This document shows, in pieces, positions 6,745 through 59,606 of a DNA stretch of 64,000 nucleotides. Every line of letters begins with the position of its first letter. The first letter of the stretch is position 1. This DNA comes from Pseudogymnoascus verrucosus. Lineage: Eukaryota. Under the pieces are notes generated by a model. That model was not told the DNA's origin, made no database searches, and worked only from the letters and a program-made list of their open reading frames with translations. Location: assembly GCA_001662655.1 (NCBI GenBank), contig KV460207.1, one strand, 5' to 3'. The position numbers and the translations under genes are program-made.

Positions 6745-7015
6745 GCTAAAATTACCCCAAAATAGGAAACAGACGAGAAAGAAAGATGAAAGAAGCAAAA
6801 TTAACACTAGGCGTTACGTCGCCTCACCCAATCACCCCCGCTTTTCTTGCTCACCCCTTGCTGTTTTGCCTCAAGATCATCGTCAAATCGATAAGGGCCA
6901 AAATCCTACGTTAAATCTATTGGCACAATGGAGATAAAAAAAACAATTGAATACCGTGCTTGTGTATGGTTAACCTGGTGGGATGTCCAATTCTTTCGAG
7001 TCTATGGCATGTATT
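6745..7015 (-). repeat. Composite repeat copy B: degenerate 5S rRNA 5' half (about 6958-7015) fused to foreign body (6745-6957)
   Basis: 6958-7007 matches 59202-59251 at 40/50 nt without gaps. Body motifs cgcctcacc, tgctcaccccttgc, aagggcc and ctattggcacaatggaga match 48421-48620. Confidence 0.8.
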
Positions 7016-7125
7016 ATCATTCTCACATAGCAGAATATATACACCATTGCACCCACCACATTTATAGCCATGAAAGATCTGGGCGGTCTAGTGGTTCAGA
7101 GATTGACAATTAACGCTGCATTGCC

Positions 7126-8363
7126 TCAGACATCATTAAACATCAGCATGGGCGGTATAGGCATATCGCAAACTGCCCAGGTCCACGCTGCACTGGGAAG
7201 GTATTGCAAGGCAACCATTACCTCCATACCATAGGCGGCTGCCCCGAATACCTTTGGATCACATTCTTTTGCCTTTTCAATCTCATCGGGTGTACAAAGA
7301 GCGAGGAAGTGTTCTCGTTTAGGGCCGATTGGGAATGCGCTACTTCCATAGTTATTTATTGAAACGAGAAGAATGGTGGCAATTCTGCGACTTACAATGC
7401 ATTTCCAAGGATGCCGTGGCAGAGATTCGGTTCCTTCTTGAGGAGACCTCGACTCCATGTCGTTTCCCGTCCCCGTGCAATAGCCTGGTCGATGCGGCCA
7501 TGAAGTTCTGGGTAGAAGGGGCGCAGCGTCTGCAAAGCACAAACAAACCCGGGGGCTCCATGACAGTATTGCACTCGCTCCCACCCTTTCTCGGTTTCCA
7601 TCGTATCTCTACTGGACGGCCAATTACCATCTGGTCCCTGGAGACTCAACAGTTCCTCGACCTTCGCAGACAGCTTGGGTGCGAGTGACGGAAGAGTGAG
7701 TACTAGCTGAGTGATGATGCCGATATCGCCGTGAGGGGGACCGTAGCGCCTGTCTCCGTTCCACTCCCAGTTGCCCTTGCCATCGCTATCCGTGTCCATG
7801 ATTTTCCCTGCGAGTTTGGCTATCGGCTCCTCAAGGCTCGACGCACTGGCGGGCACCCAGTGACGCAACATCCGTAGTAGATACAAAGCGCCTGTCCTAC
7901 CATATAGAAGCTCGGTCTCGTAGGGGTCGCCTTGGTCCGTGGGGTAGGGCCCAAGCACCGCTGGCATGTCAGAAAGGAAAGCGAGTACATCGCCATGCTC
8001 TTTAGAGAGACAGGCCCACAGAGCCTGAAAGCAGAGTCTTTCGTTTAACAGGCCGCAACCCTGCTCCTTATTGACGATAAAACATTCGATCCCGGTCCTT
8101 TTGCCCTCCATATACCGCTTTGCCCAATAGATCAGATCATGGCCGAGAATCTCTAAGCCTGGGCGAAGAGCCGAGATCTGAAAGAAAAGAAAAGCAAGAC
8201 CCGTATAGCCCATGAAGAAGCCACTGGCTTGCTCTTCGTTATAGCTCTCCTTTGGGGGAAGTGTCTGTAGAATCTGTTCTAAGCACGACTGTAGAAGCTC
8301 CGAAGGTGGTGATCGCAGAGCTTGCGTTGGGATATCGTTTGAGATATACAGTATCTCTTCCAT
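7126..8363 (-). CDS. Lanthionine synthetase C-like protein (LanCL)
   Basis: Motifs ELLYGRTG, YGPPHGDIG, VQYCHGAPG and NLCHGILGN (Zn ligands Cys, Cys, His). One intron (gtaagt...tag) near 7340-7395 joins to AFPIGPKREHFL. Confidence 0.85.
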
Positions 8364-8456
8364 GGCAAATAGCTATCGCAGATTTTGACCTGTATCTTTT
8401 TAATTAGCTAAATTACAATATGTAGATAATTAGTCCCTAATCCCCAAACTTGACAT

Positions 8457-8690
8457 TGGAAAACCCCAAGCAAGTGCGACTACGAAACTGACACGAAATG
8501 TTGCTGCCTTCTCACCCCGCTTACCCCACCCTAGTCAGGAAGGTGCTTACCCCTCAGGCGCCTGGAGAGGGGGGATCCCAATTCCACGCTATACCTATTG
8601 GAACTATCGAGAGTAAAACCAAGTAATTACTCCCAGGCTTCTTGCTGAAAGGGTAGGACTCCCAGCCACCATAGTCTACGGTCGCATATG
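8457..8690 (-). repeat. Composite repeat copy C: foreign body plus very degenerate 5S 5' half
   Basis: cgaaactgacacgaaatgttgct, ctcaccccgc and attccacgctatacctattgg match 48460-48609. The junction cccaggctt (8632-8640) and agtctacggtcgcatatg (8673-8690) echo cccaagctt and agtctatggtcgtatgtg at 59197-59260. Confidence 0.7.
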
Positions 8691-9123
8691 ACAGTTGCTC
8701 TCATATCGGGGCACGCTGTTGACCATGAAGATAAAAGCAAGAATTGTCGTAAACTGTGAATCCTACTGAAGGAGTTGTTGTAGCCTTGCTAACAAAAGAG
8801 GTGGATTGTATTCGGTTCAGCAGCATTTGTCACAGTTGATAACGATCATACATCAAAAAAAAAAATAGTGCAGCTAAATAACCAAGCAGTTTTGGCATAG
8901 TATTATATTGTCGCTTTATTTACAACGCCTACCTTGACATATAACATGCCCAAATTTAACGCCGCATAACCCCCCATCAATCTGAAGACGATGATGGACC
9001 TGCCTTTTGCATCGTACAGCCAGCTAGGCTCAGAATGGCGGCTTGGGGTTTCAATTCATTTCCTATCGGGCGTGCCCTTCCTTGCTTTATTCAAGGAGTA
9101 ATCGCAATCCAGACACTGAGGAC

Positions 9124-10878
9124 TTAGATGTAAAGGCTCTTGATGTTCTTAACGATGAAGTCGTAGGTCTTGCTGCGGAAGTCATCCTTGATGAGCTGAC
9201 TGTAGGTCGCGTAAGTGTTCAGGAGCTGGTTGCCGTCCTTCCACTGCGGCCACTTGCGGTACTTGGGGTCGGTGCCATTGTTCGGGTCCATGGTAGCCAC
9301 GAAGGAGAGGTAGTAGGCGCGGAACGATGCGGCGGCGTAGTTGGGGTAGATGCCGAAGAAGACTTGGATCAGATCGCTGCCATGGAAGGTACCCATGACC
9401 GGGGTGCCGTAGTCGTAGCTGGATAGATAAGACCACGATGGCACATCAGGCGCGATAGTGCTAGTACCAAGGAGCATGACACGGCGGGAGAGTGTGAATG
9501 TAAGGTCACCGAGGATGGCGGCCAGGCGCTTAAATTCGGGGTACCAGTTGTTGAAGATACCGGTGCGGAAGGGGGAACCGTCTAGCAAGCCGATGGGGTA
9601 TGTTTGGACGAGCTCTGACATCTGAGCTGCGGTGGAGTGGTGGAAGAAGACCGTCGTAAGGTGCTTAACCAAGTCCGCGGGGGTCTTAATGTAGCTGGTG
9701 AACAGGGCGAACAGAGTGCCTTCGTCTTCTTGATCGCCGACGATGAAGGGGACCTTCGCGTATTTGCCGTTCAGAACAAGGACATCAGGGGACTGGGTCA
9801 GGAAGACGCCGTCGGGGCGAGGAAGGTATGATAGCGCCACGGAAGTGTGTGACAGTAAGCCCGGCACAGAGTTCGCTGCATTGAGGTATGTTTGGTATGG
9901 AACACTGCGGAGGCAGGCGAGGGTATCCGCCTTGCCCTTGCAGCCAGCAGCTTCAACAACAGTGTCGTAGACGACCTGACCCTTGGGGCAGTCGACGGGA
10001 TCGGCGGGGACGACTGAACCAGAGTTCATAATGCCAGCGCGGAAAAGGGGCTTTCCCTTGTAGGTGTGGTCACCATCATTGATGACCATCTGGTCGAAAA
10101 CCGAGATGGCGCCGGCAGACTCACCCCAGATGGTCACCTTGTCGGGGTCACCTCCAAAGGAAGCAATGTTGTCGGCAACCCATTGGAGCCCCAAACGCTG
10201 GTCCTTCAGGCCGAGATTAGAGGATCCGTCTTTAAGAATCTCAGCACCTGGCAGGAATCCGAATCCTCCGATACGGTAGTTGACAGTGACGAAAATCATA
10301 GGCTTGCCCTGCTCAATAGAGGACTTGACCCATGGGGATCCATCGTACATGGTGTTCCAGCCAAGCTCGAAGCCGCCACCGAACATCCAAAAGAGCACCG
10401 GGAGTTTCGCATTGGCGGCGACGCCAGCTGGACGGTGCACGTTCAGATAGAGGCAGTCTTCGCTCTGTTGTGTAATCTTCTGGACGAAGGGCGAGTTGAG
10501 AATTTGGCCGATGACTGAGGTGGGGATGGAATCATCGAGGGCGTCTGAGAAGAAAAACTGTGGGCAGGCGGCCTGGTTCTTCGTTGCCTGGTAAGTTCCG
10601 AGGGGTTCGGTAAGAGGTTGCGGGGACTTCAAGCGCAAGTCGCCGACAGGAGGTTTGGCGAACGGGATTCCAGGGAATTGCTCAACATCTGCACCTCCGA
10701 GGCCAACGATTGTAGCCTGCGGAAATGGGATGACGACTGTTGGGGTTGCATATCTTGCCTGGAGCTCCGGTGCAGGTTCAACACGAGCACCCAGCATCGG
10801 AGGAGCGGGACCCTGAGGCATATCCTCGACGGGCAAGGCCAATGCCAAAGGCAATGCGAGAAGGGAGAGGAACTTCAT
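9124..10878 (-). CDS. Secreted type-B carboxylesterase / Candida rugosa-type lipase
   Basis: Intronless 584-aa ORF with signal peptide, SEDCLYLNV, FGGGF oxyanion motif, WGESAG nucleophile, GDQEDEG and FHGSD. Confidence 0.92.
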   Translation of the reverse strand: MKFLSLLALPLALALPVEDMPQGPAPPMLGARVEPAPELQARYATPTVVIPFPQATIVGLGGADVEQFPGIPFAKPPVGDLRLKSPQPLTEPLGTYQATKNQAACPQFFFSDALDDSIPTSVIGQILNSPFVQKITQQSEDCLYLNVHRPAGVAANAKLPVLFWMFGGGFELGWNTMYDGSPWVKSSIEQGKPMIFVTVNYRIGGFGFLPGAEILKDGSSNLGLKDQRLGLQWVADNIASFGGDPDKVTIWGESAGAISVFDQMVINDGDHTYKGKPLFRAGIMNSGSVVPADPVDCPKGQVVYDTVVEAAGCKGKADTLACLRSVPYQTYLNAANSVPGLLSHTSVALSYLPRPDGVFLTQSPDVLVLNGKYAKVPFIVGDQEDEGTLFALFTSYIKTPADLVKHLTTVFFHHSTAAQMSELVQTYPIGLLDGSPFRTGIFNNWYPEFKRLAAILGDLTFTLSRRVMLLGTSTIAPDVPSWSYLSSYDYGTPVMGTFHGSDLIQVFFGIYPNYAAASFRAYYLSFVATMDPNNGTDPKYRKWPQWKDGNQLLNTYATYSQLIKDDFRSKTYDFIVKNIKSLYI

Positions 10879-11377
10879 ATTGACGGTGACGATGAATTTA
10901 GTTGCAGCGAATTCTCGTTGTCCATGATTCCACCCGGATTGATGGGACTATATATGCTTCCCCATAATCAGACCCTCGGGTTTCCCCCGCTTCCCCGAAG
11001 ATATTGTCAGCTGCCCCAACTCAAGTTCTCCATATCATGGCGATCCGGAAACTCGAGAGCTTCCTCTTTCCAATGTTCATGCTGCGATGTTAGCTTACGA
11101 GTGGGAACGAAAAACGCGGGGCGGTCAGCCGAACACACGCACACCATTGGCCGCGTGATCTCGAAGAATGGCACTTCATCGGTGGATACGGATTAGTGTC
11201 TCAGCATGCGTCGATGTAGTCAGGGCTGGTGTCGACGGAAAATTCGATCAGCATTGTTAAAATTCGGCTTAAAATGAAAATAAAATGCAGCTGTCTGACA
11301 TGTGAAGGTTGGCAACATTGGCAATAAAGTTTTAGGCGGTACCGGCGCTCCATTGAGCCGCTCCCACGAAATACTAA

Positions 11378-11418
11378 GCATTTGCAGGCATTTGCAGGCA
11401 TTTGCAGGCACTTGAAGG
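11378..11418 (+). repeat. 10-bp tandem repeat (GCATTTGCAG)x~4
   Basis: gcatttgcaggcatttgcaggcatttgcaggcacttgaagg read directly. Confidence 0.85.
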
Positions 11419-12678
11419 GATTTTGCAGGGTGGTATGGGACATGTGCGCGGCAATCGTTGATCGTGGTCATTGTGCAGCATAGTAGCATGGTGTTGTTAT
11501 GGCATTATTGGTATTTGTTGAGGTATTGCTGGAGTATTACTGGTGTAGCTGGCACGTGTGGAGTATGAAGCTCACGTATTCAGCGTGGGAGTCGAATGAT
11601 TAACCGGATCTGGAAATACGTGCGAGTCCAAAACCAGACCCCCCACGAAATATTCCCCGCAATTCGTGTAGTAACCCCTGTCATATAGCAAGGGTTCCCC
11701 TGTTCCCCCATGGGGAAAGAAGCGAACCAGCGAACCACAATGCCGGAATGCACGGCCATTGCTACTGTACACGGCATGGATCGGTTTGTTTATGCCAACC
11801 AATCCCAACATAACTCTACTAAACACTACTAGAGACCTTAGGCATCACTATACTCCCCGCTATATATATCGTTTTGTACGCTATACACGCTATCTAGTTC
11901 CCATGGGGTAACGAGACACCACACAGCAAAAAAACCTTAAGATTACTCAAGTGTAATGCGGGGAACACATGCCAATCAGCCAAACCTCGGTTATCCGGCT
12001 CAGGAACGGGGCGGAAGATCAGACACCACAGAATCTTCTACGTCCGACAAATAGAGCTTGCCTTATGAATGCGGGGAGGCTGAGGAAGGCTGACGGTACT
12101 GGGTAATGCCTGTCAAAGGTTGATCCACTCAAGGTTTCCCCACGATCCAGCGCGTGGAGGTGGAGAAAACCCTCAGACACCCCACGGAGAAGTACATATG
12201 TTCATCTGACAAGGAGAGCGGCAATGCTCCGCAGAATTATCAAGAAGTAATGTGATACTACGTGGTACTCTTGAAGCCCAAAAGTCTGAAGAGGGGCTGT
12301 GTTTAAGAGCAGTGATTATAGCAACTATAATTAACATATAGGCATTCAATCACTCGGAGCTGCAATAAATTAACAAGTCACTCATAAAATAGCAGTAAAA
12401 ATATAAGTTAAATAGGCTTAAAGGGCTAGTATCAATCCTCAGTAAAAGCCAGCTCCTCCTCAAACTCTTTGGGGAGTACGAGTAGTCCCTTCAAATTACT
12501 AGGGTTTGGAGGTCGAGATATAGTAGTATTCTCGTCATTCATGTGATACTGAGACGGAACATCTAAGACCGCCTCAACATTACCTACAGAACTAGTCTAA
12601 TGGTGCACCGCTATCAACACAGAGAGGGGTTCTTGACGTTGTAACCGACCCATTGTGCAACCGATGTCGCAACTAGCT

Positions 12679-31858: not shown

Positions 31859-31889
31859 ATGACAGAGCGGACGGGATGCCCAAGTCTCT
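31859..31889 (-). pseudogene. Short 5S rRNA gene fragment
   Basis: 29/31 nt identical to 59210-59240 (ttgggcatcccgtccgctctg core on the minus strand). Confidence 0.7.
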
Positions 31890-34027: not shown

Positions 34028-34120
34028 CCTGATTTCTTGGCGGCTGTAGGGTCCCCTGTCCCGTCCTCTTGGCGCTCTAGACAGTTTTGGCCTGGGGAAT
34101 GATATTAACGACAAGACCCC

Positions 34121-34231
34121 CCTCGGCTCACCTTGCTCATCCTTGCTTCACCCATTCAGGCAGCAAGGGGCTCAGATTCCACGCCATGCCTATTGGCACG
34201 ATTGATTATTAATCCATTAGATTACAAGCTT
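34121..34231 (-). repeat. Composite repeat copy D: foreign body ending at the CAAGCTT junction
   Basis: ggctcacc...ttcaggcagcaagggg...gattccacgccatgcctattggcacgattga matches 48529-48618. It ends in caagctt (34225-34231). Confidence 0.8.
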
Positions 34232-34253
34232 TTAGTAGATTAATACTCAGGAC

Positions 34254-34446
34254 TAGGGTGCGTCATGGGGAACCACCGACCCAAGACCGGACCATGGTCT
34301 GTTCTAGTCCCAAATCTTCAGACTAGACCACGGTCCGATCTGAAGGTATGGGGCCATTGGGGGACCACAGCGGTCTAGGCGGTTCGCCCTGGATTTTCAA
34401 CTCAGACCGGCGGTTTCGAATCGGCGGTCCCCCATGACGCACCCGA
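34254..34446. mobile_element. hAT-type MITE, 193 bp
   Basis: 26-bp TIRs matching 23/26 (tagggtgcgtcatggggaaccaccga / tcggcggtcccccatgacgcacccga) and a perfect 8-bp TSD ctcaggac at 34246-34253 and 34447-34454. Confidence 0.9.
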
Positions 34447-36991
34447 CTCAGGACAATGCCATCCAGAATGGCGGGTAAGCGAAATTTTCATGCCCTGTAA
34501 TGATCCGGTTGCCTCCCTCGGCTACATGATGGCGACCACGGCTTCTTTAGCCCATGCTGTATTAATTTAAACTGCTAGACTGCTAGACTAAATAGAGCGA
34601 ACTTGGATGCTACTTTCGCGTAGGTCCTTCATAAGCTGGGTCTTCCCTGACATTAAACTTCGCGCATCAATCCACATGTAGCTGGTGTTCTCTGATTAAG
34701 TCAACAACACACCACCCTCTGACTCCGAGCCTTTCCCGCTGTCCCCTTACCCCTCCTGTAAGCAACTAATTTGGTCTGCCAACTCTTTTCCGTCCTTATC
34801 TGAAACGGAAAGTCGAGGACTTGACCTAGCAGAGATATGTGTTGTTGCGTGCCCAGGTTTAGGATGATTTGGGTATTCCCAGTCGTTGAATCTGGTCGCC
34901 ACATACTTGGGCCTCACTGTCGTTCGATAGGTCGCAAAGTGTCAAGTCTGATCTGAGCAATGACATCTCGTTGAATTTTCTCTTTTGAGCCAAACCCCGC
35001 GCGGCATACCTCGCGACTGAGATTATAAGATACATAGACGCAGCCGTCGTTCTATAAAGGCTTCTCTACGTAAATGAACTCATAGAAGGAAGGCTATGCC
35101 GTAACACGAAAACTATTCAACATGACTTCCCAAAACTAGTTCTCAACATCAAGTTAGTGGTCTTGTCACTATTAATCTCGAAACACTCTTCGCTCGAGAC
35201 TCCAGCGAGACGATTAAACTTTTCGAAGTAGCAAAAGAATACGGCTTATGTGTGGCAGACAGGCCCTACTCATTGAGTTTCATATATCAGATTCCATTAT
35301 CATCATACTCTATAAGCTCCTCCTCTGGAAGACTAAACAATGCTTCGTGAAAAGCATATATTCCATCTATGAGACGTAGAAAAGCCCGCGTCTTGCTGTG
35401 TCCCCTACGCTTGCTAAAATACTATGCGCAACACTTTCACGAACCTGGTCCGCCCCAAACCGCACACACTAACCTAGGCAGCCTGACCGTCCTTTTCAGC
35501 AAGCACCCTGGGCTACAGGTTCTTCAGAAGGGAGCGGGGGAGTGGAGTTTGTAGAGCCGCGCTATAAATATAGACGATGGGATGGAAATGATGACAAATG
35601 GGCTGTTGCATTCGACTTTGCACCGGGTGGTGCTGCCGAGGGACAAGGCAGTGACGACGAGGCATTCGTTTGCTGCGCGGGCGGAGGAACATACGCCACG
35701 CCGTTAATTAGTATTCGGACCCCTTTAATTCCGCCGAGGGAACAGGCGTCGAGGATTCTCACGAGTGGGAAGTGGCTCGATAAAATGTTTGGCATGTTAA
35801 GAGCGAAGAGGCATGATAGTGACCAGGCGTGGGCGATGAGGGGTCCCCAGAGGGTTGCTGTGATGTTGAGATAGCGATGATATTCGATTTTTTCGAGTTT
35901 TTCGAGTTTTTTCGAGTCTTGGAAGAGTTGTTATATTTCTTTATCTAGCTATTGTTGAACTGTGAAAGAGGGAATTGAACTGTCAAAGTAGGTGGCTGTG
36001 GCATTAAAAAACATCAGGCTCCTTCTGCAAAACTTTTGGAAGTCTATAAGTCCACGAGTCACGTTGTCGGCAAGTTTAAGAAGCTTGTATCGCCAGATGC
36101 ATTACTAATGCTAAGATAATCTACCTCAAAAGTTATGTCACATATTAAATTCATGAATAAGCACCCATAGACTTGATACAAATCAGAGTACGCTGAACAA
36201 AAGCTGATTTAGATTTACAACCAGGTACTGTTATTATTGTTCGCCGAAAGAGAGGAAGTAATGCCATTCCATGAAACAGTGACTATTGTGATGTCCACTT
36301 TACTAGAGAATATCAGCCGTAGAGCCCTATCACCTTTAGGCTGATATCCGTAAATAGCAGATGTCTGGGGGATTACGCCAATGTAGCGAGATTGCGCCAT
36401 AGTGTTGTGTTGGTTTTGGTTGGAGAGGATTTGTAAGATCGGTAATATGTAGCACACGAGATTTATCAGAGTTTGTTACCATTTTGTCACCATCCTGTCA
36501 CCATTACATTACTAAGATGTTGGTTCAGCGGGGCGACTTCATCGGGATGGGATGGAGTACTAGGTACGACAGGGTACGGGACAGGGAATGGGCCCGAGAG
36601 TGGGCAGTGGCCTTGTAGCCTTCACCTGTGTGGGCCGCGGATATCATCTCGCCAGTCGATCGGGGGATTTCAGAGATCCGTTAGAGATATGTTAGCTCCT
36701 TTCATTCTAATTGAATATTGAGTGGTGATAGCAATTAGCTAACAAACGTCAGAAAGAAGTGGCTTATAATGGCATTGCATTGTTATTATAACATTCCTGT
36801 CTCGACCATCGCGTCCATCTCTTCATCGCACTACTATCCTCGCATTTCTTCTCTGTCTACTACTTCTATATATTCTCTTGATCTCTCAACTATCATCCTT
36901 TATCTTCCTTCTTCTTCAAGGAGTCTGATTTTATGAACAATTAAGAGTCTACTTGTCCTACAGAAAGAATCTCAAAACCCCATCAACAAAT

Positions 36992-45450: not shown

Positions 45451-46266
45451 AGGTAAACGAGGATTTGCTATTGCCAAGGTGCCAGGCTGCTGTCGTCGTT
45501 GTTGCAGCTGTTGCAGTTTTGCTGGCTATATTTCAGACGTGAGTCAGTCTCTCTAGAGATCGACAAGGGTTAGAATCCTCCACAGCCACGGTAACTCAGC
45601 ATTCCTTCAGATAGTAGACTAACGCCTAAAATGGTATTCCCCGTAACGGTTTCATAGCGCTATGTCCGAAATGGTTTCCCGCGAAACGGTTTCACGGGAG
45701 CCATGAAGGACAAATGCTCTTCAAACTTTGGTCTTGGAAAAAGCTTGACAGGATCGATTTCAATTCCAAACAATACCATTGAACTTCTCAACAGTTGCAG
45801 GGCATTTCGGTCTAAGCACCATTTGTGCTCACAAGGCAGACTACTACGTATACGCCTCGCGTGATTAAGCAGGCCAGACTCCATGATCTGAATTATAAAA
45901 AACTAATAAAGTACTCTTCCATCGCCCATCATGGACCTTACATCACGTGCCTCCACAGTCAAAAATAACGTGACTTTCCCAAATATATTGTGTGAGTTAC
46001 GAGCGTAAACCAAACTTGTAGATTATTACTGGGCTACGGCCTTTACTTATGCCGTAGCCTTCGGAGCTATTCTCCGTACGAAACATACTAATTTTTCACT
46101 AAGTCCAGCTATGTAAACCCGTGATCTCTGCCTGATTCTTCAGGCCAGAATCACAATTGCGAGGTCATCGTTACCATTGACATCAATGATATCACCACCC
46201 GAGTCACTCCGTCACCGCCATAATATCGCATTCACGTGCTAAATCTCCAATGCCTCATCCGCGAAG

Positions 46267-48077: not shown

Positions 48078-48420
48078 AGTGATATATGGGTGTTATTTAT
48101 ATTAAGTGGGAAGGTGTATGATATTTATAATATCAAATAGTTATTTATATAAAGTGCAAAGGCATAGGCTAATTATAACATTGAAGATTAGCACACGATA
48201 GCAACAACTTTCTCTACTTATTAAAAAATATCCAAGCAACATATTCGATACAAAGACCCTATCGTATGCATTAGAGGGCCCCATGTGCAGTGCGCAAAGG
48301 AATCTAAAGTTGCATAGATATTCATTTTAGAACTAGCTACAGGTTCAACATCTGTTCTATGCATCTAAGATCTATACCAATGGTTCAAGCGAGGTCTGCA
48401 TATTTATATAGGGTAGGTAA

Positions 48421-48644
48421 GCTAAAATGGCAAACCCCGGCACTATTACGATAATAACGCGAAACTTACACGAAAATGTTGCTTCGCCTCACTCACCCCG
48501 CTCACCCCACTCACCTTGCTCACCCCCCGGCTCACCTGCCTCGCCCTGCTCACCCCTTGCCTCACCCTTCAGGTGGCAAGGGCCCGCGATTCCACGCTAT
48601 GCCTATTGGCACGATTGAGACTATTAGCCAGAGGATACGCAAGC
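48421..48644 (-). repeat. Composite repeat copy E: best-preserved foreign body, with CTCACC array, ending at CAAGC
   Basis: Shares blocks with copies B, C and D. 48613-48644 equals 59172-59203 at 30/32 nt. Confidence 0.85.
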
Positions 48645-48914
48645 AATCCTCTGGATAATACTTGAATTGGTGCCATCGGGCCAAGTGGGTGAGCTTCGCT
48701 GCCGTTACTCTTATTTTGTGATCACGACCGCCTTGACTACCTCGACCACCCAAAAGTGAATCCGTTTTTTACAACATGATAGGACGGCCTATACATGAAC
48801 AACACATGAATAACATATGAAAATAGATCATAATACACAGCACAGTTCAAAATAAAGTTCTAATTTTAACAAGAAGCCCTCTTTCAGTGATCATAATTTG
48901 CGACTGAATCCTAA

Positions 48915-50607
48915 TCAAGCTCTTATAGCATTCTCTACAATCTTCAACGACACGACCAACTCCTCATCCCTTCCAGGGCGGCCCAAGATTTGAAATCCAG
49001 ACGGCGCACCTTCCACATCCTTGGGCAGATATGCTGGAACATATGAGACATCGCGGCGAAAGGGAACATCAAGTTCGGCATTAGCGTTGCCATGTGGAAT
49101 GGAAACTGAAGGGTAATCGACCAGATTCGCAAGAAGAGTATAGAACGCAGGACCGTAGGTATCGTGTCCAACAGCAGTTCCTTGGTACACAGGCATAATA
49201 AGAACATCAAGCCCCTCCTTTACCCATGCATTTTTGAACTGGTTACATACCTCGCGCCGCTCGAGGTTCACACGGAAGGCATCGTCGACGGTTGGCTGGT
49301 AGTGTTTGAGTTCTGGCAGAGAAGTGTTGGATATGGACGGAATGGGTGGTTCGCCGGATACCTTTAGCTGAGAGAGGATATAATTGGTGGGATCCATGCT
49401 AAATAGGTAATAAGCAGTAGTAACGGCCTTGTCAAGGAATTGCGATGGTAAATGCTGCTCCATGTTCACAACAATGTGCCCTGCTATCTCCAATTTCGAA
49501 ATGGCGTCTTTGAAAGTCCGCAACACAGATGGGTGGAGAGGGAATTTATTGCTTTCCGTGACAAAACCGATTCGAAGTTTCTTCCCGGCTACCTCAGAGA
49601 TGCTTGGAGACACTGACCGCCATGGTGCATACATCGCAGTTTCGTCCAGAGACCAAATATCATTTTCGGCACTTAGAAAATTCTTGAGGAAGTATTCGAC
49701 ATCCCGAACAGAGCGTGTGAGTGGACCACCTGTTGAAAGGATGCCCCACCCGCCTGGGCGAGCGGCAGATTCCTGGCCAGCAACGGGAAAGCGACGGGCA
49801 GTAGGTCGGAACCCAATTGTGCCGTTCACATAAGCTGGAATGCGAATGGAACCTCCAATATCAGTCCCGACTCCAATGATGGAGCCCTTCATGGCGAGAA
49901 GAGCTCCTTCGCCACCAGATGAGCCGCCAGCAGTTAAAAGGAGGCTGTGGGGATTAAGAACCCGCCCGAAAAGGTTGTTATCAGATTCTGCAGTCATCAT
50001 AGTTTGTGGGATGTTGGTCTTGACATAAAGAACCGCACCTTGACCTATGAGGATCTGCGCCACAGCTGAATGGGACTCTTCAACAGGACGTTCAACAAAC
50101 GAGATAAACCCAAGGGTAGTTCTAACGCCTTCTACCGCAAAGCATTCCTTAATAGAAATCGGGAGGCCATGAAAGGGTCCTAATGTCTTCTTCTCTCTCG
50201 CTAGGTAATCGTCGCAGAATTTTGCGCGCTTGAGAGCAATGTCAAAAAATGTTTCGGTAAGGCAGTTTGTCTGTATTTGTTAGCTTAGTTGAGATAATTT
50301 GTTAACAATGGTAATATACTAATTGTTGGGCAATCGCAGCACGCTTGCAGAAGGCTGTAGTGACGGCAACAGATGTGAACTTCCCCTGTGCTAACAATTC
50401 GGCCATCGCCACCGCATCATAATTTTCAGTGATGTCTAATTCTTCCTTTGTCAAAATGTCGCATGTTCTTGGAATATCCAAAACGTTCTGCTCTGAAGTC
50501 TGAGAAATATTATCCGTAATCGAGGCTGGTAGTCGCCATTCCTTTGGGATTTTCTCGGCCATAATTGAGCGGTATCTCGCAGCCGATTCTTGCCATGTTG
50601 CCATCAT
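48915..50607 (-). CDS. Amidase-signature family amidase (acetamidase/general amidase-like)
   Basis: Two exons (intron about 50319-50271). Motifs KRAAIAQQL|TNCLTE, GLPISIKE, GGSSGGEG and GTDIGGSIRIPA. Confidence 0.92.
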
Positions 50608-50957
50608 GAAAACCAGTGTTTGGTTAAAAGACTAATTTTGAAACTGTGTTGTCAGGTAGTAAATTGTGAACGGATTGGAAATGTAGGAAAGAAAGAAGGA
50701 GGGGGATAATAGGAGCAGCTTTATATATTTAGCAAATATATACATTCTAAACCCCGCAAACACCCCATGTTCCACTACCAGCTCCACAATGTCCAAGGCA
50801 CCCAAGTCGACGTCTAAATTCATTTACCAGGCCTTAGTCGAACCTTGGGGGCCGTTCAGGTTAGTAACTATTGGGATATCCGATTTCATGCCATTGGCGT
50901 TAGCCAATCAGGTGTAATTGCGCGCTACTAACAATATCCACAATTAGTCACATCCAC

Positions 50958-51396
50958 TAATCGTGGGTGGAAGCAAGTCCGGGCACTGGAAGCAAGTGCG
51001 CGCAACCAGGGCCAAATTTGCAGGTATCTTTACATAGTAAATTATATGTAAAAGTACAAATGGTCAATAAATTGTAATAATTACTATGCTATTTCTAACA
51101 CAAAAGTACATATAAATAATAATAAACATTCTAAATGACTTCATTAAAAGAGAAATAATAATACATTAATATACTCTATTACCTATACTAGAATATCTAA
51201 AACTTAATAGTTATATAAAAGTGTTAATTAATAAAAAGGTAATAGAATTACCCTCGTTTTACAGCGCGTTTTTTGGTAAGGAAAGCAAAATTACTATGTA
51301 ATTTGCAAACTCTATGTCACTTTACACCTAATTTACTATGTAAAGATACCTGTAAATTTGGCCCTGGTTGCACGCACTTGCTTCCACCCACGATTA
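50958..51396. mobile_element. Tc1/mariner(pogo)-type MITE, about 440 bp
   Basis: About 68-bp TIRs (taatcgtgggtggaagcaagt...ccagggccaaattt.caggtatctttacatagtaaatta), with a 19-bp internal duplication in the left TIR, TA at both ends, and a very AT-rich interior. Confidence 0.88.
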
Positions 51397-51704
51397 TTCG
51401 TTTATCCTCAAACCACGAATTGAGGGAATAAGAATTTCAGGGAATAAGGATTTCAATAAATTTAGTAGGGATAGAGGGTGCGGAAGAAGTGACCGTAGTG
51501 ATTCTCTTTCTCCTCTTTACGCGCTCGTCGTATATGGCCGGCCACAATTAGCAAACTCCCAAAGTCTCCCAAGCGCATCTAAGTTTGAAGAGGTTTTATA
51601 TCGTAACTAGAGAGAGCGTTATTTTATTTGTAGCATTATTTATGGAGTAATTTAAGTAATGCTTTTATATGAATAGCTATATGACTATAAGTAAATATAA
51701 AGGT

Positions 51705-53295
51705 TTAAATCTTTGCTTTCCATATCCATTTATAGTCAAGGCATGCCCATCTCGCTATTAAAATGGAGAGAAGTGCCAGGACCAGAATTCCGCCTGAGAA
51801 AGCAACGTATGCAGTCGTTCCTGCAGCTGACTGCAGTTCTGCTGCAATAGGAATAGAAATTAAAGTGCTAGGCGTAGTGTTAGAATTTTCTCGATTGTTT
51901 TGCGATTTAGCACTTACGCAAAAGCCACTGCACTATAGCTTGTGCCATACCACTGACCATACTCGCTCACTTTGCAAAGGTCTCCAATACACACCGGAGC
52001 CAAACTAATTACACTGCCAGAACCAAACCCAAAAATGGAAACCATGACGTAGAACAGAGCTACGTTATGTCCAACTGGTAACCAGAGCGCGAATGTTGCA
52101 AATATGGAGATTAGAACAAACAGTGCCATGCAGTTGAACCGACCATAATAATCAGCGACTAGCCCAGCGGTATAGCGTCCCAGTCCGGAGCCACTTTTGA
52201 TAATTAGTTTCCAACTTCAGATGCAAGAGACATTCTTACGCATTAAAGACTGCAATCGCGTTAAAGCTCGCCTGATGACCGAAGCCCTGTTCGAGGGCAA
52301 AAGTTGGAAGAAGACCAATAGCAGTGTAGAGAACAAACTCGAAGCCTACCAAACTCTTGTCAGTAGATTTAAATTTGAAGAGGCATCCTTTGGGTTAACT
52401 TACACGCAATTCCAACAGTTGCCCAGGCAAATCTCAAGTCCCGAAAGCATTTCAAGCTGATGACGCCTCCTTGTTTTCCTGTTGGTAGGCGACCTTTAAT
52501 GAAAATATTTCCAAACACCACAAACACAAACACAATTAGACTTAACAACCTCATTGCCCAAGCCCAGGACAAGCGCTCCAAGATTGGATTCAGTGCTAGC
52601 GGGAACATTATTCCTCCTAAACTCGTCCCCATGAAGGCAACCCCAGTGGCCAGTCCCCTCCTGGCCTCAAACCAATGTGATACCACTGAAAGGGCTACAG
52701 TTGTAAGTATCGCGCAACTAATCCCACCTAAAACACCAAAACAGAGAAAAAAATGCCAATATTTCGTGCATTCACCCAAAATCAGCAAATAAGCAACACA
52801 CCCGACAGAGCCTGCGAACGTCAACCATCTTGGTCCATATCTATCGAAAAGCGGACCAATCTGCACACCGAGAAAAAGAGTTAGGAAGATTTGGGTTGAT
52901 GATATCCATCCTATATCTCGAGAGCTGTAGGTTGACAGTTGGTGCGACTGCCAGTAGGACTGGAAGAGCCCGATGCAGCTGCCGAGTCCAAATGTGGCAG
53001 CGATTAGGCAGAAGCCGGAGAAGACGACGAGCCACGCACTGAGACCTCCCTCAGGAAACGACAAGGCAATGGAACGGGGTTGTGATTGCTGGAGTTCTAG
53101 TTGAAACTCCTCTTCGTCATTCAGTGCTGCTGTAAATTCTGACAATATTGCTGGTCGGGTTTGGGGAATTGTAGCGTTTTGTGCCTGCGGCAATTCTCGT
53201 TGAATTTTCTCTTCATCTGATGGTGGGGCGGATGTTGCTAAAGTTATCATGCTTGTTTCGATTTTTGAAGTGGTATATGCCGCTGTCTCTGCCAT
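51705..53295 (-). CDS. MFS monocarboxylate-porter (MCT/MCH-like) transporter
   Basis: Multi-exon. Motifs FPEGGLSAWLVV, GPLFDRYGPR and HWFEARRGLATG; ends ARWACLDYKWIWKAKI*. Confidence 0.88.
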
Positions 53296-53489
53296 TTACG
53301 GAACAAATGATCAGGGTAGTTATGCCTTAACGGAAAGTCAAGTCAGAGCAACTCAGAGCGAGAAGTTATAATAAGGTCGGAAGATTAGGGAGGCTTCCCA
53401 ATTTTTGGCCCCCTTACATCAATTTAACTTTTTCACGTTTCTGAAAAGATAACTGAGTTCAATCGGAAACAAATAGAGCCTCTAGTGTA

Positions 53490-54015
53490 GATGTCTCCTA
53501 TTGGAAGAATCTTATTTTTTTCAGGTAACATCTCTTAAGCTTCCTCGTTGTCCACCTTCCCAGATTGAATACAAGCTAACGGAATCTCTCTCTGAAAACG
53601 TGGAGGCCCCAGCGCAAATGCCTCCTATTGGAAGAACCTTGCTATTCTTAATCAGGGATATTTAATCCTTCCCGCTGTTCAGCACCCCAGATTCAATAAA
53701 AGCCAACGGAATTTCTCTATGAAAACGTTGGAAGCCCCAGCGCAAATCTATCCTATTGGAAGATCCTTGTTCATTGTTCTCTTCAATTGAGAGGGAGATC
53801 CACATCTCTAAAGCTTCCCCGCCGTCCACCTCCCCGGATTTAATAAAAGTTATTAGAATCTCCCATAACGTGGAGGTCCGGCGGAAATAGCTCCTATTGG
53901 AAGAGTCTTGTTCTTTTAGTCGTGGGGATTGTCCACCCACTAGCTTCCCCGCTGTCCACCTTCAAAACAAACTAACGATTTCGTAAGCGAAAACATGGAG
54001 GCCAGGCGCAATTAC
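53490..54015. repeat. Four diverged tandem units of about 127-141 bp in a divergent promoter
   Basis: Core tcctattggaaga at about 53496, 53623, 53751 and 53892. Each unit also has cttcc.cg.gtccacc and aaacgtggaggcc..gcgcaaat variants. Confidence 0.85.
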
Positions 54016-54078
54016 ATATGACTGGTCTTGATTTTACACTGCCTTGATCCAGCGTTACTTAAGCTTGCCTAGATTGTT

Positions 54079-54188
54079 GTGGGGAACCCCGCAAATGATA
54101 AAGTGGCAACGAATTAGGGTCCACGATACAAAGCACTAAAAGCTGGACTCCGATTGATCGTCATTTTATCATTTGCGGGGTTCCCCAC
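54079..54188. repeat. 110-bp hairpin/inverted repeat upstream of the DAL5-like gene
   Basis: Perfect 24-bp inverted repeat gtggggaaccccgcaaatgataaa (54079-54102) / tttatcatttgcggggttccccac (54165-54188), with imperfect pairing continuing inward. Confidence 0.85.
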
Positions 54189-54334
54189 TTCAATTTGGAG
54201 AAACAAGATGTCAAGTGAAATGTACCGAAATATAAAGCTCTTCGCATATCTAATATATCATGGATGTCGGATAGTCAACTTCTACAACATTTGCCAACCG
54301 TGGTATCCAGACACTAAACTTTGATATCGAAATC

Positions 54335-56125
54335 ATGGCAGAGAAGAATACAGAGGCTGATTTGCCTGGTTTCCGTCATCTTGAGATGTCCTCTGCAGAT
54401 TTGAGGAGAGACTCGACATCTGATAACTTGGCTACTCTCAAGACTGACATTAGAGACATTGCAATCATTGAAGTGACGGATGAACAGAATCGCAGAGTCT
54501 TGCGCAAGATTGATCGATGGTGAGAAACTCTAAAGCCAACCCAAGCTTCCAAAAACTGTTAGCCGCCCATTAACAATGAGCTTAGTCTCCTCCCCATTAT
54601 GGGTATCGCCTTCATGCTTCAATTCCTTGATAAGGCTGCTCTAGCAGCATCGACTTTGCTTGGCCTGCTCGATCCGACAACAGGCGGGATCGTGAGTTTA
54701 TTTCCCCGTTTAAAAGGACATCTCTATGAGGAACATATCAACGAGTCTAATTCTATAAACAGGCTTTGGTAGGATCCCAATTTGCATGGTGCTCTTCGAT
54801 TTTCTACTTCGGGTATCTTGTTTTCAGTTTCCCAAGCGCCTACCTTATCGTCCGCTTGCCAATCGGAAAGTACCTAGCTTCCGTTGTTATACTCTGGGGC
54901 GGGATATTAATGTGCACCTCTGCTTGCAAGACATTTAGTGCCTTGATGGCTCAAAGATTCTTTCTCGGTGTCGCGGAAGCAGCCATCACACCAGGGTTTT
55001 CTCTCGTCACTGGGATGTTCTACACGCGTAAGGAGCAGCCTCTACGCCAGGGTGCATGGTTTATTGGAAACTGTCTTGCTCTCATACTAGGTGGACTGAT
55101 TACGTATGGAGTCAAGAACATTCCTAACCCTCCTCTTCCACATTGGAAATTATTGTTTCTGTTTGAAGGAGCTGCTACTTGTGCATATGGAGTCTTCATG
55201 ATCTTCGTCTTACCAGACTCTGTTATGACAGCCTGGTTTTTAAATCATGAAGAGCGCACCATTGCCTTAGCCCGTACATTGAAGAACAAGACTGGCGTTC
55301 TCGACAGCGGCGTCTTTAAATGGGAACAATTCAATGAGGCATTTCGAGATCCACAAACGTGGCTCATTGCGCTCTATAATGTTGCCATCAATCTCCCAAA
55401 CGGTGCTTTAAACACGGTATGTCACTCGTTGGAGTACATTGCGGTATTATAACTAAAACCTGCGACTTTAGTTCCAACCTCTTATTGTTAATGGCTTAGG
55501 CTTCAACACTCTCACCTCAATCTTGCTCCAGATGCCAACTGGTGGAAATGAAATCGTCTTCCTCCTCATCACCTCTAGCCTCGCCTCATTACTTCCGCAC
55601 GCGCGTGTTCTGATTATGATTTTTAATTGTGTTGTCGCCATGGTTGGCATGGTCCTAGTGTACAGTCTCAAGTCCCAAGCTGGGCAAATGACCGGTGTCG
55701 TCTTCGCCGCCACATACGCCATCAACATCCCTATATTTCTCAGTCTAATCACATCTAACGTTTCGGGCTTCACCAAGAGAAGCACAGTTAGTGCGATTGT
55801 GTTCGTGATGTATTGTGTTGGTAACATCGCTGGTCCGCAGTTTTATCTCGAGCGTCAAAAACCACGATACCAGGTGCATTGCGACCCCTTCCATATTCCT
55901 TACTGCTTGCTAACAACAGAATAGATGGGTCTAATATCCTCGCTCGTCGGATATGCCGTTGGCATCACCTCTCTCATTTGCCTGTACGCTTATTACCGGT
56001 ATGAGAATCGTCGGAGAGACAGGGTGTATGGTTCTGAATCAGAAGTCAACACTAACCAAGAACTCACCGATGAGTTGTCTAACGAAACCGACCGTACGAT
56101 TACTAGCTTTCGCTATATGATGTGA
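54335..56125 (+). CDS. MFS anion:cation symporter family, allantoate/ureidosuccinate (DAL5-like) permease
   Basis: Multi-exon. Motifs RVLRKID, LQFLDK, SIFYFGYL, RFFLGVAEA, FYTRKEQPLRQGAW, SNVSGFTKR and GNIAGPQ. Confidence 0.9.
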
Positions 56126-56897
56126 AGTTTGGTTGAGTCCTGGTCAAACGTTTGTATGCTATATACTTCAGGCGCGCACTGTTGTCTTCTAGAGAGCAAA
56201 CAGAGCTTAACAATAGTAAAAACTTTCTAAGAATACTCCCATCTACAAATATATGTTGAGTTTAAAACTTACAAGTAATATTGCGGTCAACTATGCTTCA
56301 GGATGAGATCAATACAGCGCATACTATAGCTTCCGGTTTGTGCTGTCGAGTTTCAGAAGCTATATCAAATGAGTCTGTATTTCATTTCACTCTCACAACC
56401 TCGCTAGTTAGTACACTGAGGGGGCCTTCTTGAAGATCGGGCCATCAAGCCAATTTACAATGGGTGAACTGATAGATACAAAAGTCTTTAATAGCTAAAG
56501 CACTCTGAAAACACACTAGGCTGGGTACAAAAATGGTTATTGGATGTTAGTACTTAACTAGCACGAAGGCCACCAGCCAGTTGATATTGAGGTCGACAAC
56601 ATGATCCTAGATATCTCTCTCCTCACTTCTTTCACATTACTCATACACCTACAAGTCCCCCTATTTCCGAAATCATTTCCCAAACGCCACACGATTCGAT
56701 TAAAACCCTTCCGCAGACTAACTTTGTGAAATCTCAGATTCGTGATTACCAAGAAGCTCTCTGAGTCCTATTCTTAATCTGTTAAGAATAGGGAAGGGAA
56801 CGTAATCAATGTCCTACAAGATGACTGTTATGGCTAATACTGACCATTCTACTCAGGAAATCTTGATTCAAATCACATCTTCTGAAACTTCTATAGT

Positions 56898-58439
56898 TTA
56901 CTGTAGCCCAGGCATACCCACAAATCGATCGAGCCGTTCTTGCGAGACTTCCATGACTCCACAGCCATCGATGACCCGCAGCGTCTCCGCTATCCTGTCC
57001 TTGATTATCCTCTTAGCACCCACATCCGTCGCAATATGTTGAATTATACTTAGCGGCCACAAGTTGTACTTGCTAAACAATGGCGTAACCGCGACTGCAG
57101 TTATTTCATTAACGAAACGGTTTATATCCGCCTGGGCCGAATCTTTCAAGCTTATTCCCTCTGGCTGCTGCGACAAAACATCCTCTAGCAAGACTTTCGC
57201 AGCTAGAATATACAGTCTCCCTGGTGAAGACGCGTTCGACGCTAGAAAATTTACCCATTGATGCAGTTCTGTTATTGCAAACGCTGCAATAGCGAGATCC
57301 TCTTCGCCTAAGGGTCTGCGCCGCCGCGCAAGATTTGAAATGATGACGATAAGGCGAAACAACTTATATGGTACACCTAACACCGGCCAGCTCTCCCAGT
57401 TCTCATCACTAGGGAGCAGAGAAAACTGAAAATATTCATCGATCATCTGCCATGCCTCACTGCTAACTAGGACATCGAAGTCAGGGTCGTAAGTCATCAT
57501 GATTGTGCCATGGTAGAGCAGCGATTCGTAGCATTTGCGCTCAAAAATTACATGTAGTGCCTCTGGGTCGCATTCGGCTTCTGTCATTCGGGTCGCCTGT
57601 CGACACTTGAGCAGCTGCATAATCGCGCGAATATGTGTCCCTCTCGACCAGGTGGGACAGCTCAGATCCCGATTAGCTAGTATCGTGAGCAGGATGACGG
57701 CGCCTAGCAGCCAGTCTTCGGTGCCGTTCACACTTCCGAGCTCAATGCATCCTCGAATGGAACGTATGGCGGCAGTTTGGTGGGTTAAAGCTCGTTGACG
57801 CATCCTCATAACGGTTCGCCGATCCGAAGAGACCATATAGGAGATGGACGTGGCAGCGCAGGCTAAAGCCGCTTCCATCACGGGAATATTTCCCAGCGCC
57901 AAATTAATCCAGTAGGCGCCATTGTGAAACCGTGGATGAGAATGTTCATGGATTAAACAGGGGAGAAAATGTTTCACGTAATATCTGAACAGGTCGTCGT
58001 CACCATTCCCATGGAATGACACTACTGCGTGATTTGACCACAAGTCGACGATGCAGTTGCTTAATTGATTATTGCCGACTATCCCATGGGGTTTTGTTGG
58101 ACCTCCAGTCGCAATTGTAGGCGAAGGCGAAGATGATCTGTCCTCGTTCGAAGTCGAGGTCTTTGATTCCGATCTCGATGATCGTATCGACCGCGTTCGT
58201 CTCCGGCCATCCTCAAGCAGGTGCTGAGAGCTAGGCCACACGCATTTCATAAGGACGTGACGACAGCCTCCGCATCTTGGACGCACTTCATCACATTTCT
58301 TCTTACGTTGTCTGCCTATAGCGAACGTGAGCCGAGAAACTTAATAGGAAAAGGAGAACCGAATAAGTTACGCACAAGAAATGCAGCCGGTCTTTGTCCG
58401 TAGACGCGCATTGTTTGTAATTGCCGGCATTTCGATCAT
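56898..58439 (-). CDS. Zn(II)2Cys6 transcription factor
   Basis: Exon 1 ...RTKTGCIS|C spliced to RQRKKKCDEVRPRCGGCRHVLMKCVW gives the six-Cys binuclear cluster. A fungal TF middle region follows. Confidence 0.88.
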
Positions 58440-59198
58440 CACATCAAGATCGATATAATATATTATCTATCACGATTCATGATCTACGGTTGTTGATTTC
58501 CATTGGAATGCGGGGTAAAGGTTACAGAGAGTTGCGGGGTAGCATCTCCATTTTGTGGTATCTAATAACCGAACCGCTTTCACGCTAGAATGTATTCAAC
58601 AATTCATATTGATTCCGATTTCCTATAGGATAATTAGAGATCACATATGGTGGGAAATGACAACCTCCAAACTTATAAATCTTTGACTCCAGCCGGCAGC
58701 CAGATTCTGGTCGGCGGCAAGAACCTAGCTGGCTCATAATAGTTGCGAACCCACACCATAACCCCGCGTCCGATTTTGACTTATTAACAACTACATGTTC
58801 GCCACAGCACCAGACCTTCGCCAAAACTAAGTCGCTCCAAACCGTTAGAGCTTGGAGCAACAGCCTTGCGGGAACCATAATTTTTGACAAGAGAAGAAAC
58901 ATTGAATATTTGAGTGCCACTCGACAAACTGCGTGAGATGGGACGGGGAGATAAGAGAGCGGTGTAAGTTGAGAATACAGACAGAATCGGACAAAGTATA
59001 ATGGTTACGAAACTTTCATGATATTGAACTACGTACGTACAAAATCTGACTATCAAATTCGGAGCCTCAACAGTCACACAATTGGGTCCGTTGTGTATCA
59101 GGCGGCAGACTTCACATCAATGGATCATAAATCGGATCCAGACAGTGAATTTGTTACGAGTCAGCTGGCCTGATTGAGACTATTACCCAGAGGATACC

Positions 59199-59259
59199 CA
59201 AGCTTGTGTATGGCAGAGCGGACGGGATGCCCAATTCTCTTGAGTCTATGGTCGTATGT
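59199..59259 (-). rRNA. 5S rRNA gene, 5' half only (interrupted at about nt 61)
   Basis: The minus strand reads ACATACGACCATAGACTCAAGAGAATTGGGCATCCCGTCCGCTCTGCCATACACAAGCTTG, a typical Pezizomycotina 5S start. A TATA lies about 28 nt upstream. The 3' half (box C, GGGTGACCACC) is replaced by foreign sequence. Confidence 0.88.
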
Positions 59260-59606
59260 GATTGTTTTTAGAGTATGACACTCTATAAGGGGGTGGGGAG
59301 AAGAAGCCCAAGTCAGAAAAACGCTGCCTAGGTTGTGGTGCATTATTAGAAGCCCGGCCCTGCGGTTGCTAGTGCTTTCCCAGCAATACTTAGAATTGAA
59401 TATCATGGGGTTATCGCCAGAGGCGGCATATAGCCCCACACGCGTGTATAATAGGTAGTCGAATTGACCTGTTACCTTCCCATGAACGGAATCCCAATAT
59501 TTCGCCCTCACATCTTTATCACATGATACACTGCCAATCAGGTCTTCCCTTTCCTCCTAAATCATCACATAATGTGTGGTCCATCAATCAGCCCTTGACT
59601 TCCTAA

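Follow-up and report, generated by a model that had tools for sequence, protein, structure and literature searches.

Short interspersed elements (SINEs) derived from 5S rRNA have been described in Aspergillus, where, according to the part of PMC5063351 available to us, AfuSINE3 and SINE3-1_AO have a head corresponding to 5S rRNA over its first ~60 nt, followed by a short stretch that varies and a body with GGGTGAG-type repeats. Repeats of the same layout, compared by eye only, occur in a stretch of 64,000 nucleotides from contig KV460207.1 of Pseudogymnoascus verrucosus (GenBank assembly GCA_001662655.1), hereafter called the window, in which two pieces of the family bracket a 10.5-kb interval with four predicted genes, the subject of this study. 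The family is similar to the Aspergillus 5S-derived SINEs in length (~270-290 bp here, 259-343 bp in Aspergillus) and, like the AfuSINE3 type, is dispersed in gene-rich regions. The copy number seems to be higher in the relatives of the window (body at 12-14 times single-copy depth) than the ~5 copies of A. fumigatus, and head-less copies with a mirrored arm, which are seen here, are not mentioned for the AfuSINE3 type in the available part of that account (PMC5063351).

Truncated 5S rRNA pseudogenes constitute 18-83% of the 5S sequences in filamentous fungi (cited from Rooney and Ward 2005 in the part of PMC5555474 available). Those of filamentous ascomycetes, as far as they are described there, have kept part of the 5S gene, as has the head of the family studied here. 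Pseudogenes composed of the 5' half of the 5S gene and a conserved block were reportedly found in A. nidulans by Bartnik and co-workers in 1986.

Starships target 5S rDNA and have direct repeats of 6-16 bp (PMC11162782; bioRxiv 10.1101/2024.06.28.601215; available parts of both). Those located in 5S rDNA (Voyager, Osiris; the families Enterprise, Arwing and Voyager) are the nearest mobile analogue of the interval, carrying cargo between direct repeats at a 5S-related sequence in Pezizomycotina, with a repeat that reflects the target. The interval differs from them in having no DUF3435 captain near its ends or in the rest of the window, in its size (10.5 kb, against 27 kb and more reported for Starships), in its repeat (38 bp, of which only the last 4-5 nt are 5S-like, against 2-16 bp) and in its site, the junction of a SINE head and arm as opposed to an intact 5S gene. 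Presence/absence polymorphism was not seen here among four relatives, the contigs of which break in repeats.

Inverted sequence next to an element is known from twin priming (5' inversion) of LINE (long interspersed nuclear element)-mediated retrocopies, and from fold-back or centre-deleted palindromes at short inverted repeats. Two copies of the family resemble these in having inverted sequence of their own arms at the 5' end of the element, with the pivot on a short palindrome. Neither target-site duplications nor a partner LINE came to light here, although no search aimed at the latter was made.

As read from its sequence, the interval is a predicted four-gene catabolic (amide-utilisation) cluster within the 5' part of one 5S-derived SINE-like copy. 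An old, one-off insertion or rearrangement at the DNA level, bringing the four-gene cluster into the SINE copy, is tentatively favoured as its origin, with a probability somewhat below even.

Direct repeats and the 5S-derived SINE-like family

The first-pass annotation of the window described 32-bp direct repeats bracketing the cluster at a split 5S gene. Such repeats are present, with 30 of 32 positions identical between 48613-48644 and 59172-59203, and they are longer than had been claimed, since 48607-48644 and 59166-59203 agree at 34 of 38 positions (BLAST E 5e-9 within the window). A 20-nt piece of the repeat is found at only two sites in the window at ≤3 mismatches (0 expected, 100 shuffles), and the other family copies in the window, anchored at the core, match the 38-mer at just 6-19 of 38 positions. 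Both repeat copies are on the minus strand. The left copy (48607-48644) consists of a 30-nt arm, U1 (48607-48636), followed by ACG and the core CAAGC, and the right copy (59166-59203) of arm U3 (59166-59195), followed by ACC and the same core. The head/arm junction in the intact arrangement is formed by CAAGCTTG (59199-59206), read from the letters as an 8-bp perfect palindrome.

A family copy, read on the minus strand, comprises a ~58-nt 5S-like head, the CAAGCTTG junction, an arm consisting of a ~19-nt variable stretch and the conserved body end, and a ~180-nt body with GGTGAG-type repeats. Six family pieces are found in the window in one shared orientation, giving four bodies and four head pieces per 64 kb. 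Alignments identified an intact copy with head, linker and body at 6746-7018 and an intact but diverged one at 8472-8690; in addition there is a head-less copy at 34095-34249 and, by similarity to the family, a 31-nt head fragment at 31859-31889, all on the minus strand. The remaining two pieces are those at the ends of the interval. The left piece contains tail, body, arm and core, its tail and body (48422-48606, minus strand, hereafter body E) carrying CTCACC/GGTGAG repeats and aligning with the bodies of the composites 6745-7015 and 8483-8690 and of the copy at 34127. The right piece contains arm, core and a 5S-like head (59204-59259, minus strand) that is 80% identical to 6958-7007 and 94% identical to 31859-31889, and its similarity to the family ends exactly at 59166.

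In the alignment the left piece (body and linker) and the right piece (5S-like half and linker) are complementary parts of the composites 6745-7015 and 8483-8690, and the overlap of the two fragments is exactly the arm and core. Judged from these alignments, the direct repeat is the arm and core of a dispersed 5S-derived SINE-like family and not part of a 5S gene. The expectation that removing the interval would recreate such a composite was correct as to the complementarity of the fragments; what is split, or seems to be, is a SINE-like copy and not a 5S gene.

A split 5S gene as the target was not supported either. Only the ~58-nt head is 5S-like, and its match to the Rfam 5S_rRNA model, good only over model positions 1 to ~58, reached 14.3 bits where the gathering score is 38, and this only in an isolated search with 301 bases; no 5S was obtained in Rfam scans of the whole window (gathering threshold; E ≤ 10). 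With its end near position 58, the head presumably stops upstream of the location of box C in 5S genes. Starship-like elements are called by a signature of 'cargo at a split 5S gene', which fragments of 5S-derived SINEs can mimic, and caution is advisable with such calls.

The body is unrelated to 5S and common to many dispersed copies, four in the window and 12-14 times single-copy depth in each of the four relatives. The same body translation is present in the metagenomic open reading frames (ORFs) P0005, P0006 and P0008, and ORFs over true 5S genes and over family copies have the head translation in common and diverge after it. P0005, from a metagenome contig, passes through a true 5S gene at its 3' end and enters, ~25 codons on, the head of an element with the arm type that adjoins body E (E-type arm), i.e. 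a 5S gene and a SINE-like copy in tandem. A single LanC-like gene (7129-8372) lies between the intact copies at 6746-7018 and 8472-8690, which share their orientation.

Mirror arms at head-less copies

Directly inside the left repeat lies U2 (48646-48675, plus strand), which repeats the arm in inverted form and, together with U1, makes up a near-palindrome around CAAGC. U2 matches the reverse complement of 48607-48636 at 23 of 30 positions, which was reached by 0 of 5000 shuffles, and the U1/U2 region has a predicted DNA hairpin of -18.3 kcal/mol (z -5.1), while in gapped local alignment the mirror arm scored 28, equalled by the best of 300 shuffles. The imperfect inverted copy noted in the first-pass annotation is thus real, although its interpretation as the terminus of a cassette is not borne out, because it mirrors the adjacent arm and the same geometry is present at 34203-34249. 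The exact 26-nt U2 pattern had 0 matches in the genome-contig and viral-contig collections. The region 48640-48760 was also considered as a degenerate 5S-like head and was ruled out, its alignment scores being under the shuffle means.

Both head-less copies end at CAAGC and are followed by a mirror of their own arm at identical offsets. For the copy ending at 48644 the 23 of 30 matches correspond to 15 of 20 over the shorter length, and for the copy ending at 34229, in which the arm at 34203-34224 is mirrored at 34230-34249, 15 of 20 were likewise found, with 0 of 5000 shuffles reaching the observed count in either case. The controls were not significant, with 7/20 (11/30) at the right fragment and 9/20 (13/30) at the intact copy at 6955. 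Since the arms of the two head-less copies differ in sequence (14/38 when anchored at the core), each mirror derives from the arm beside it, and 48646-48675 need not be a terminal inverted repeat borne by a cassette. The mirror arm is accordingly read here, by sequence comparison, as a recurring junction feature and not as evidence of a transposon end. The second head-less copy with its own mirrored arm points to a recurrent fold-back process at the head/arm junction, and the geometry, with CAAGCTTG as the pivot, is compatible with fold-back synthesis, twin priming or a longer palindrome that lost its centre by deletion. At 34196-34256 the position-anchored match count was significant but the hairpin was not so thermodynamically (z -1.5, 20 of 200 shuffles), and gapped local alignment of the mirror at 34100 scored 19, the highest shuffle score being 24. 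Nowhere else in the window is there a partner repeat to the copy at 34095-34249. Directly past its mirrored arm starts a pair of 39-nt inverted repeats 121 nt apart (34251-34449), resembling a miniature inverted-repeat transposable element (MITE).

U2 and U3 have a common outer limit (TGGC...), are inverted, of equal extent and ~70% alike, and CAAGC is present at both ends of the interval. Such an arrangement would be expected of a non-autonomous DNA transposon with U2 and U3 as ~30-bp terminal inverted repeats and CAAGC, or AC(G/C)CAAGC, as target-site duplication, inserted beside an end-like sequence. The observation that other sequences, including the MITE end 51373-51398, abut the same CAAGC-head junction in relatives (51398->59199) would also agree with this. 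A transposon of this kind is nevertheless very improbable, as U1 would be an unexplained third copy of the arm, U2 and U3 include the conserved SINE body end (TGGCAC.ATT.A) and so are SINE-derived, and neither a transposase nor other copies were found, the interval being at single-copy depth and the pattern occurring just twice in the window.

Presence of the interval and its right junction in related genomes

Sequencing runs were searched with a query composed half of flank and half of interval, which gave 22 runs, and four of these, X2, X3, X4 and X17 (organisms B, C, D and G, respectively), were compared with a 20-kb stretch of the window. They come from four studies, one of them being also that of the possible source. 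The joints, loose ends and contig pieces given below are those among the matches listed, from contigs that break in the repeats.

The interval was present at single-copy depth in all four related genomes. The depth of the interval was 44.5 in X2 (flanks 48-59), 24.1 in X3 (flanks 18-23) and 34.7 in X4 (flanks 32-39). In the relatives, the bin with the family body was at 12-14 times and the bin with the head at 40-160 times the single-copy depth; true 5S genes probably add to the latter. X3 differed from the window at 78 of 4137 positions in the left flank, 120 of 9551 in the interval and 103 of 3613 in the right flank, and X4 at 78 of 4189, 145 of 10152 and 102 of 3613, respectively. The corresponding differences of X17 were 80 of 4160 in the left flank and 59 of 4959 in the interval, with the right flank not among the matches listed, and the divergence of X2 was ~0.1% throughout flanks and interval. 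Divergence in the interval does not exceed that in the flanks.

Single contigs cross the right junction into the head in X2 (51342-59226), X3 (58626-59228) and X4 (51395-59228). In addition, a metagenomic ORF of 92 amino acids, which shares 96% identity with ORF 59161-59556 of the window (minus strand), contains right flank, head, core, arm and a stop codon at the edge of the interval in one reading frame. As this ORF spans from the flank to the interval edge, an independent relative has the right junction in linkage with the right flank. Neither a flank-to-flank empty site nor a circle junction was found among the listed contig matches of X2, X3, X4 and X17.

The base at 59186, at which the two repeats of the window differ, is T in all three covering contigs of X4 listed and C in the right repeat of the window, and the same codon encodes D in the metagenomic ORFs P0004 and P0005 and G and A in the right and left arms of the window, respectively. 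The difference may reflect a local change in each copy, to judge from the few copies available. Outside the interval, 169 bp of the window (45987-46155) are missing in X3, X4 and X17 (joint 45986->46156), and the same three genomes have a 20-nt insertion behind 45332.

The left boundary in related genomes

The left-flank contigs of X3, X4 and X17 cease to match the window at 48415, within ~6 nt of the outer end of the SINE-like copy, and continue with 1162, 1162 and 3107 letters, respectively, that do not match the 20-kb stretch compared, which indicates a structural difference among the relatives. In X3 and X4 the alignment of the interval contigs starts at 48640, so that the core and U2 are present, after 15 and 26 unaligned letters. 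Each of X3, X4 and X17 has one single-copy contig with an E-like body lacking 47 nt of the CTCACC tract, and in X3 and X4 the E-type arm and core are followed immediately by a head, at depths of 18.6 and 39.3, respectively; at this joint, 48639->59199, 5 letters can be assigned to either side. Additional loose ends are found behind 48644 in these two genomes. The joint 48639->59199 was not seen among the matches listed for X2 or X17, although contigs of this kind cannot prove its absence. Other copies in the relatives have other linkers, and some agree with the E-type arm over its first 20 nt (to 48626) and differ mid-arm. No database protein was matched by the ORFs over the left junction, P0001 and P0024.

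The short rejoined contigs of X3 and X4 correspond to the empty-site sequence that the first-pass annotation had predicted, but the same genomes have kept the interval with its right junction, so the contigs need not be an empty allele of this site. The data are compatible with a long palindrome (arm-core-head followed by head-core-mirror arm), the heads of which were lost in the lineage of the window by deletion between the cores, and also with an E-type element at another locus.

These observations bear on the possibility that the cluster is resident and that its boundaries carry two separately truncated members of one SINE subfamily, the left one a head-less, palindrome-bearing copy formed by twin-primed retroposition or deletion of a palindrome centre and the right one a 94-bp 5' fragment. 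The 38-bp repeat would then be merely the shared arm and core, and the picture of a split element would be secondary. Intact elements with this arm type are found at other places (P0005; contigs of X3 and X4), and in X3 and X4 an E-like body with arm and core continues into a head at single-copy depth, which suggests that the left copy once had a head of its own. The density of the family (four bodies and four head pieces in 64 kb, in a single orientation), the head-less copy at 34095-34249, which lacks a partner repeat in the window, and an interval as diverged as its flanks also agree with independent fragments. On the other hand, a rare arm type, the orientation, a right end exactly at the limit of U2 and an exact overlap of arm and core would all have to coincide, and the distinct GC and GC3 (GC content at third codon positions) of the interval would be left unexplained. 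Independent fragments with secondary loss of the left head, a history that requires no insertion but several coincidences, are on balance rather unlikely, and nearly as likely as the insertion favoured here.

Composition of the interval and evidence for mobility

The interval had appeared AT-rich by eye in the first-pass annotation. Its GC content is 0.446, compared with 0.506 for the rest of the window, and is the lowest among all 10.5-kb segments. Analysis of codon usage, which had been proposed as a check, gave the same picture: the GC3 of the five interval exons (0.45-0.54) was lower than that of 23 other exons (0.47-0.83; Mann-Whitney one-sided p = 0.0003).

Pfam searches with 24 + 74 ORFs of the region 48400-59560 (the 74 being those of ≥50 amino acids) did not identify any DUF3435, integrase, recombinase or transposase domain, in agreement with the earlier statement that the interval encodes no recombinase or transposase. 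No recombinase or transposase was found among the 59 ORFs (≥110 amino acids) of 1-44,300 either, the total for the window being 157 ORFs.

The first-pass annotation interpreted the interval as a mobile cassette. In the form considered here a captain-less cargo would have integrated site-specifically at the CAAGC(TTG) core, i.e. CAAGCTTG, of a 5S-derived SINE, mobilised by a 5S-targeting recombinase encoded elsewhere, with arm, core and mirror arm as a palindromic attachment site. The contigs of X3 and X4 would show the unoccupied site and their different left junction would be a second integration context. The circular form, U3 + core + U2, would have inverted arms around a short core, as in the sites of tyrosine recombinases; the left junction of X3 and X4 is preceded by letters unlike U1 and the rejoined arm-core-head form is also present there; and the distinct composition of the interval and the targeting of 5S rDNA by Starships, with their direct repeats, likewise agree with a cassette. 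A cassette is nonetheless improbable. No recombinase was found in the 157 ORFs of the window, the interval is single-copy in all four relatives, three of them retain its right junction, which in the metagenomic relative is connected with the right flank, and neither a flank-to-flank empty site nor a circle junction was among the matches listed. Furthermore, a mirror arm is seen again at 34203-34249 with another sequence and so tracks the local element, and 10.5 kb is far below the 27-700 kb given for Starships in the available parts of the sources. With the interval in single copy in 4/4 relatives and the right junction bridged in X2, X3 and X4, evidence of mobility was not obtained. If the cassette interpretation were true, the interval would be captain-less cargo on SINE heads serving as decoy landing pads, which would widen the routes of gene mobility in fungi.

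Origin of the arrangement

The insertion or rearrangement at the DNA level is favoured because one event copying a single module would explain together the exact overlap of arm and core, the mirror arm, the outer limit common to U2 and U3, the distinct composition and the orientation in which the pieces agree. The event would have started with a break in the head/arm region of a SINE-like repeat, and repair or replication with template switching would have brought in the 10.5-kb segment. The 38-bp module of arm and core, or perhaps the entire head-core-arm module of 94 bp, would thereby have been left on both sides in direct orientation, with one fold-back copy of the arm at the left junction, the pivot being the natural palindrome CAAGCTTG. 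The event would be older than the split of the five genomes compared and the locus would have been inherited vertically since. In the lineage of the window a small deletion between two palindromic cores may later have removed the head beside the left arm. That a single event lies behind all three arm copies, that the mechanism was break repair and that the head was lost later is inferred from the arrangement as it stands. Of the original proposal, insertion into one composite element is thus reasonable from the geometry, whereas its site-specific, mobile and 5S-gene parts are unsupported.

Several observations weigh against this preferred reading. Among the relatives compared, no genome had the two flanks joined over an uninterrupted element, so the insertion is deduced from geometry alone. 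No target-site duplication was detected around the presumed original element; the test has no discriminating power, since none was significant at any family copy, not even at the two intact ones, and 163 of 2000 shuffles equalled the best flank repeat, between the left side of body E and the sequence right of U2 (9/11). In X3, X4 and X17 the left boundary is different, in a manner that the contigs could not resolve. The E-type arm is also present in an intact element elsewhere (P0005) and in the arm-core-head contigs of X3 and X4; as the arm type is not unique, similarity of the repeats could be mere subfamily membership. The window is dense in family pieces of the same orientation, so that two neighbouring fragments are not very improbable. 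Finally, GC3 was as low in 3 of the 23 other exons, and low GC3 may reflect the weak codon bias of inducible genes.

If a single break-repair event was indeed responsible, the locus would be a clean example of 5S-derived repeats shaping accessory gene neighbourhoods in filamentous fungi, and the palindromic head/arm junction would be a recurrent breakpoint.

Genes and other features of the interval

Pfam matches supported the gene content given in the first-pass annotation, i.e. an amidase, two MFS_1 transporters and a Zn2Cys6 regulator. The amidase gene (48915-50631, minus strand; Pfam Amidase, E 2.6e-82) has a large exon at 48915-50279 and an upstream exon at ~50302-50631, the latter with tblastn matches to homologues in the metagenome contigs L004 and L018. 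The first MFS transporter gene, labelled MCT earlier, is located at 51914-53295 on the minus strand (Pfam MFS_1, E 1.4e-18 and 4e-07 on two exons), and the second, labelled DAL5-like, at 54751-55924 on the plus strand (MFS_1, E 1.1e-18). The predicted product of the second is 53% identical to that of the MFS gene beside the amidase homologue in L018. The Zn2Cys6 transcription factor gene (56898-58340, minus strand; Pfam Zn_clus and Fungal_trans_2) also has a homologue in the cluster of L018. The flanking genes have NUDIX/IF-2B domains on the left and parvulin-type and cysteine dioxygenase domains on the right (Pfam).

Metagenomes contained 54 amidase loci with a best identity of 57%, i.e. no close relative, and only L018 was informative. 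On this contig of a distant fungus (1806-11624), genes for a Zn2Cys6 regulator, a DAL5-like MFS transporter, an M20 peptidase and an amidase (50% identical) are neighbours, and the cluster core of regulator, MFS transporter and amidase is 37-53% identical to that of the window. Since these three are adjacent also in a distant fungus, the cluster core is an old functional unit that could move as a block. L018 had no Rfam match. The M20 peptidase occupies the place of the first MFS gene of the window.

Between the amidase gene and the first MFS gene lies a MITE-like insertion of 437 bp (50958-51394) with inverted ends (I1, I5) and flanked by TA. It is present in the window and in X2 and is skipped by contigs of X3, X4 and X17 (joint 50957->51395), and is thus polymorphic. 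In contigs of X4 and X17 the last 26 nt of the MITE end (51373-51398) are joined directly to the CAAGC-head junction (51398->59199), and an opposite-strand joint, 51313->59199, was found in X2, X3 and X4. The joints of MITE ends at 59199 suggest that some family copies have MITE-end sequence at the position of the linker.

The divergent promoter region between the two MFS genes contains four tandem units of ~128 bp (53474-53910, family D6), each with CCTATTGGAAGA, a reversed CCAAT-like motif. The units had no significant homology to the SINE body except for a match of 14 of 15 nt containing CCTATTGGAA. Upstream of the second MFS gene, at 54073-54194, there is a near-palindrome with 51-nt arms that are 80% complementary and separated by a 20-nt spacer.

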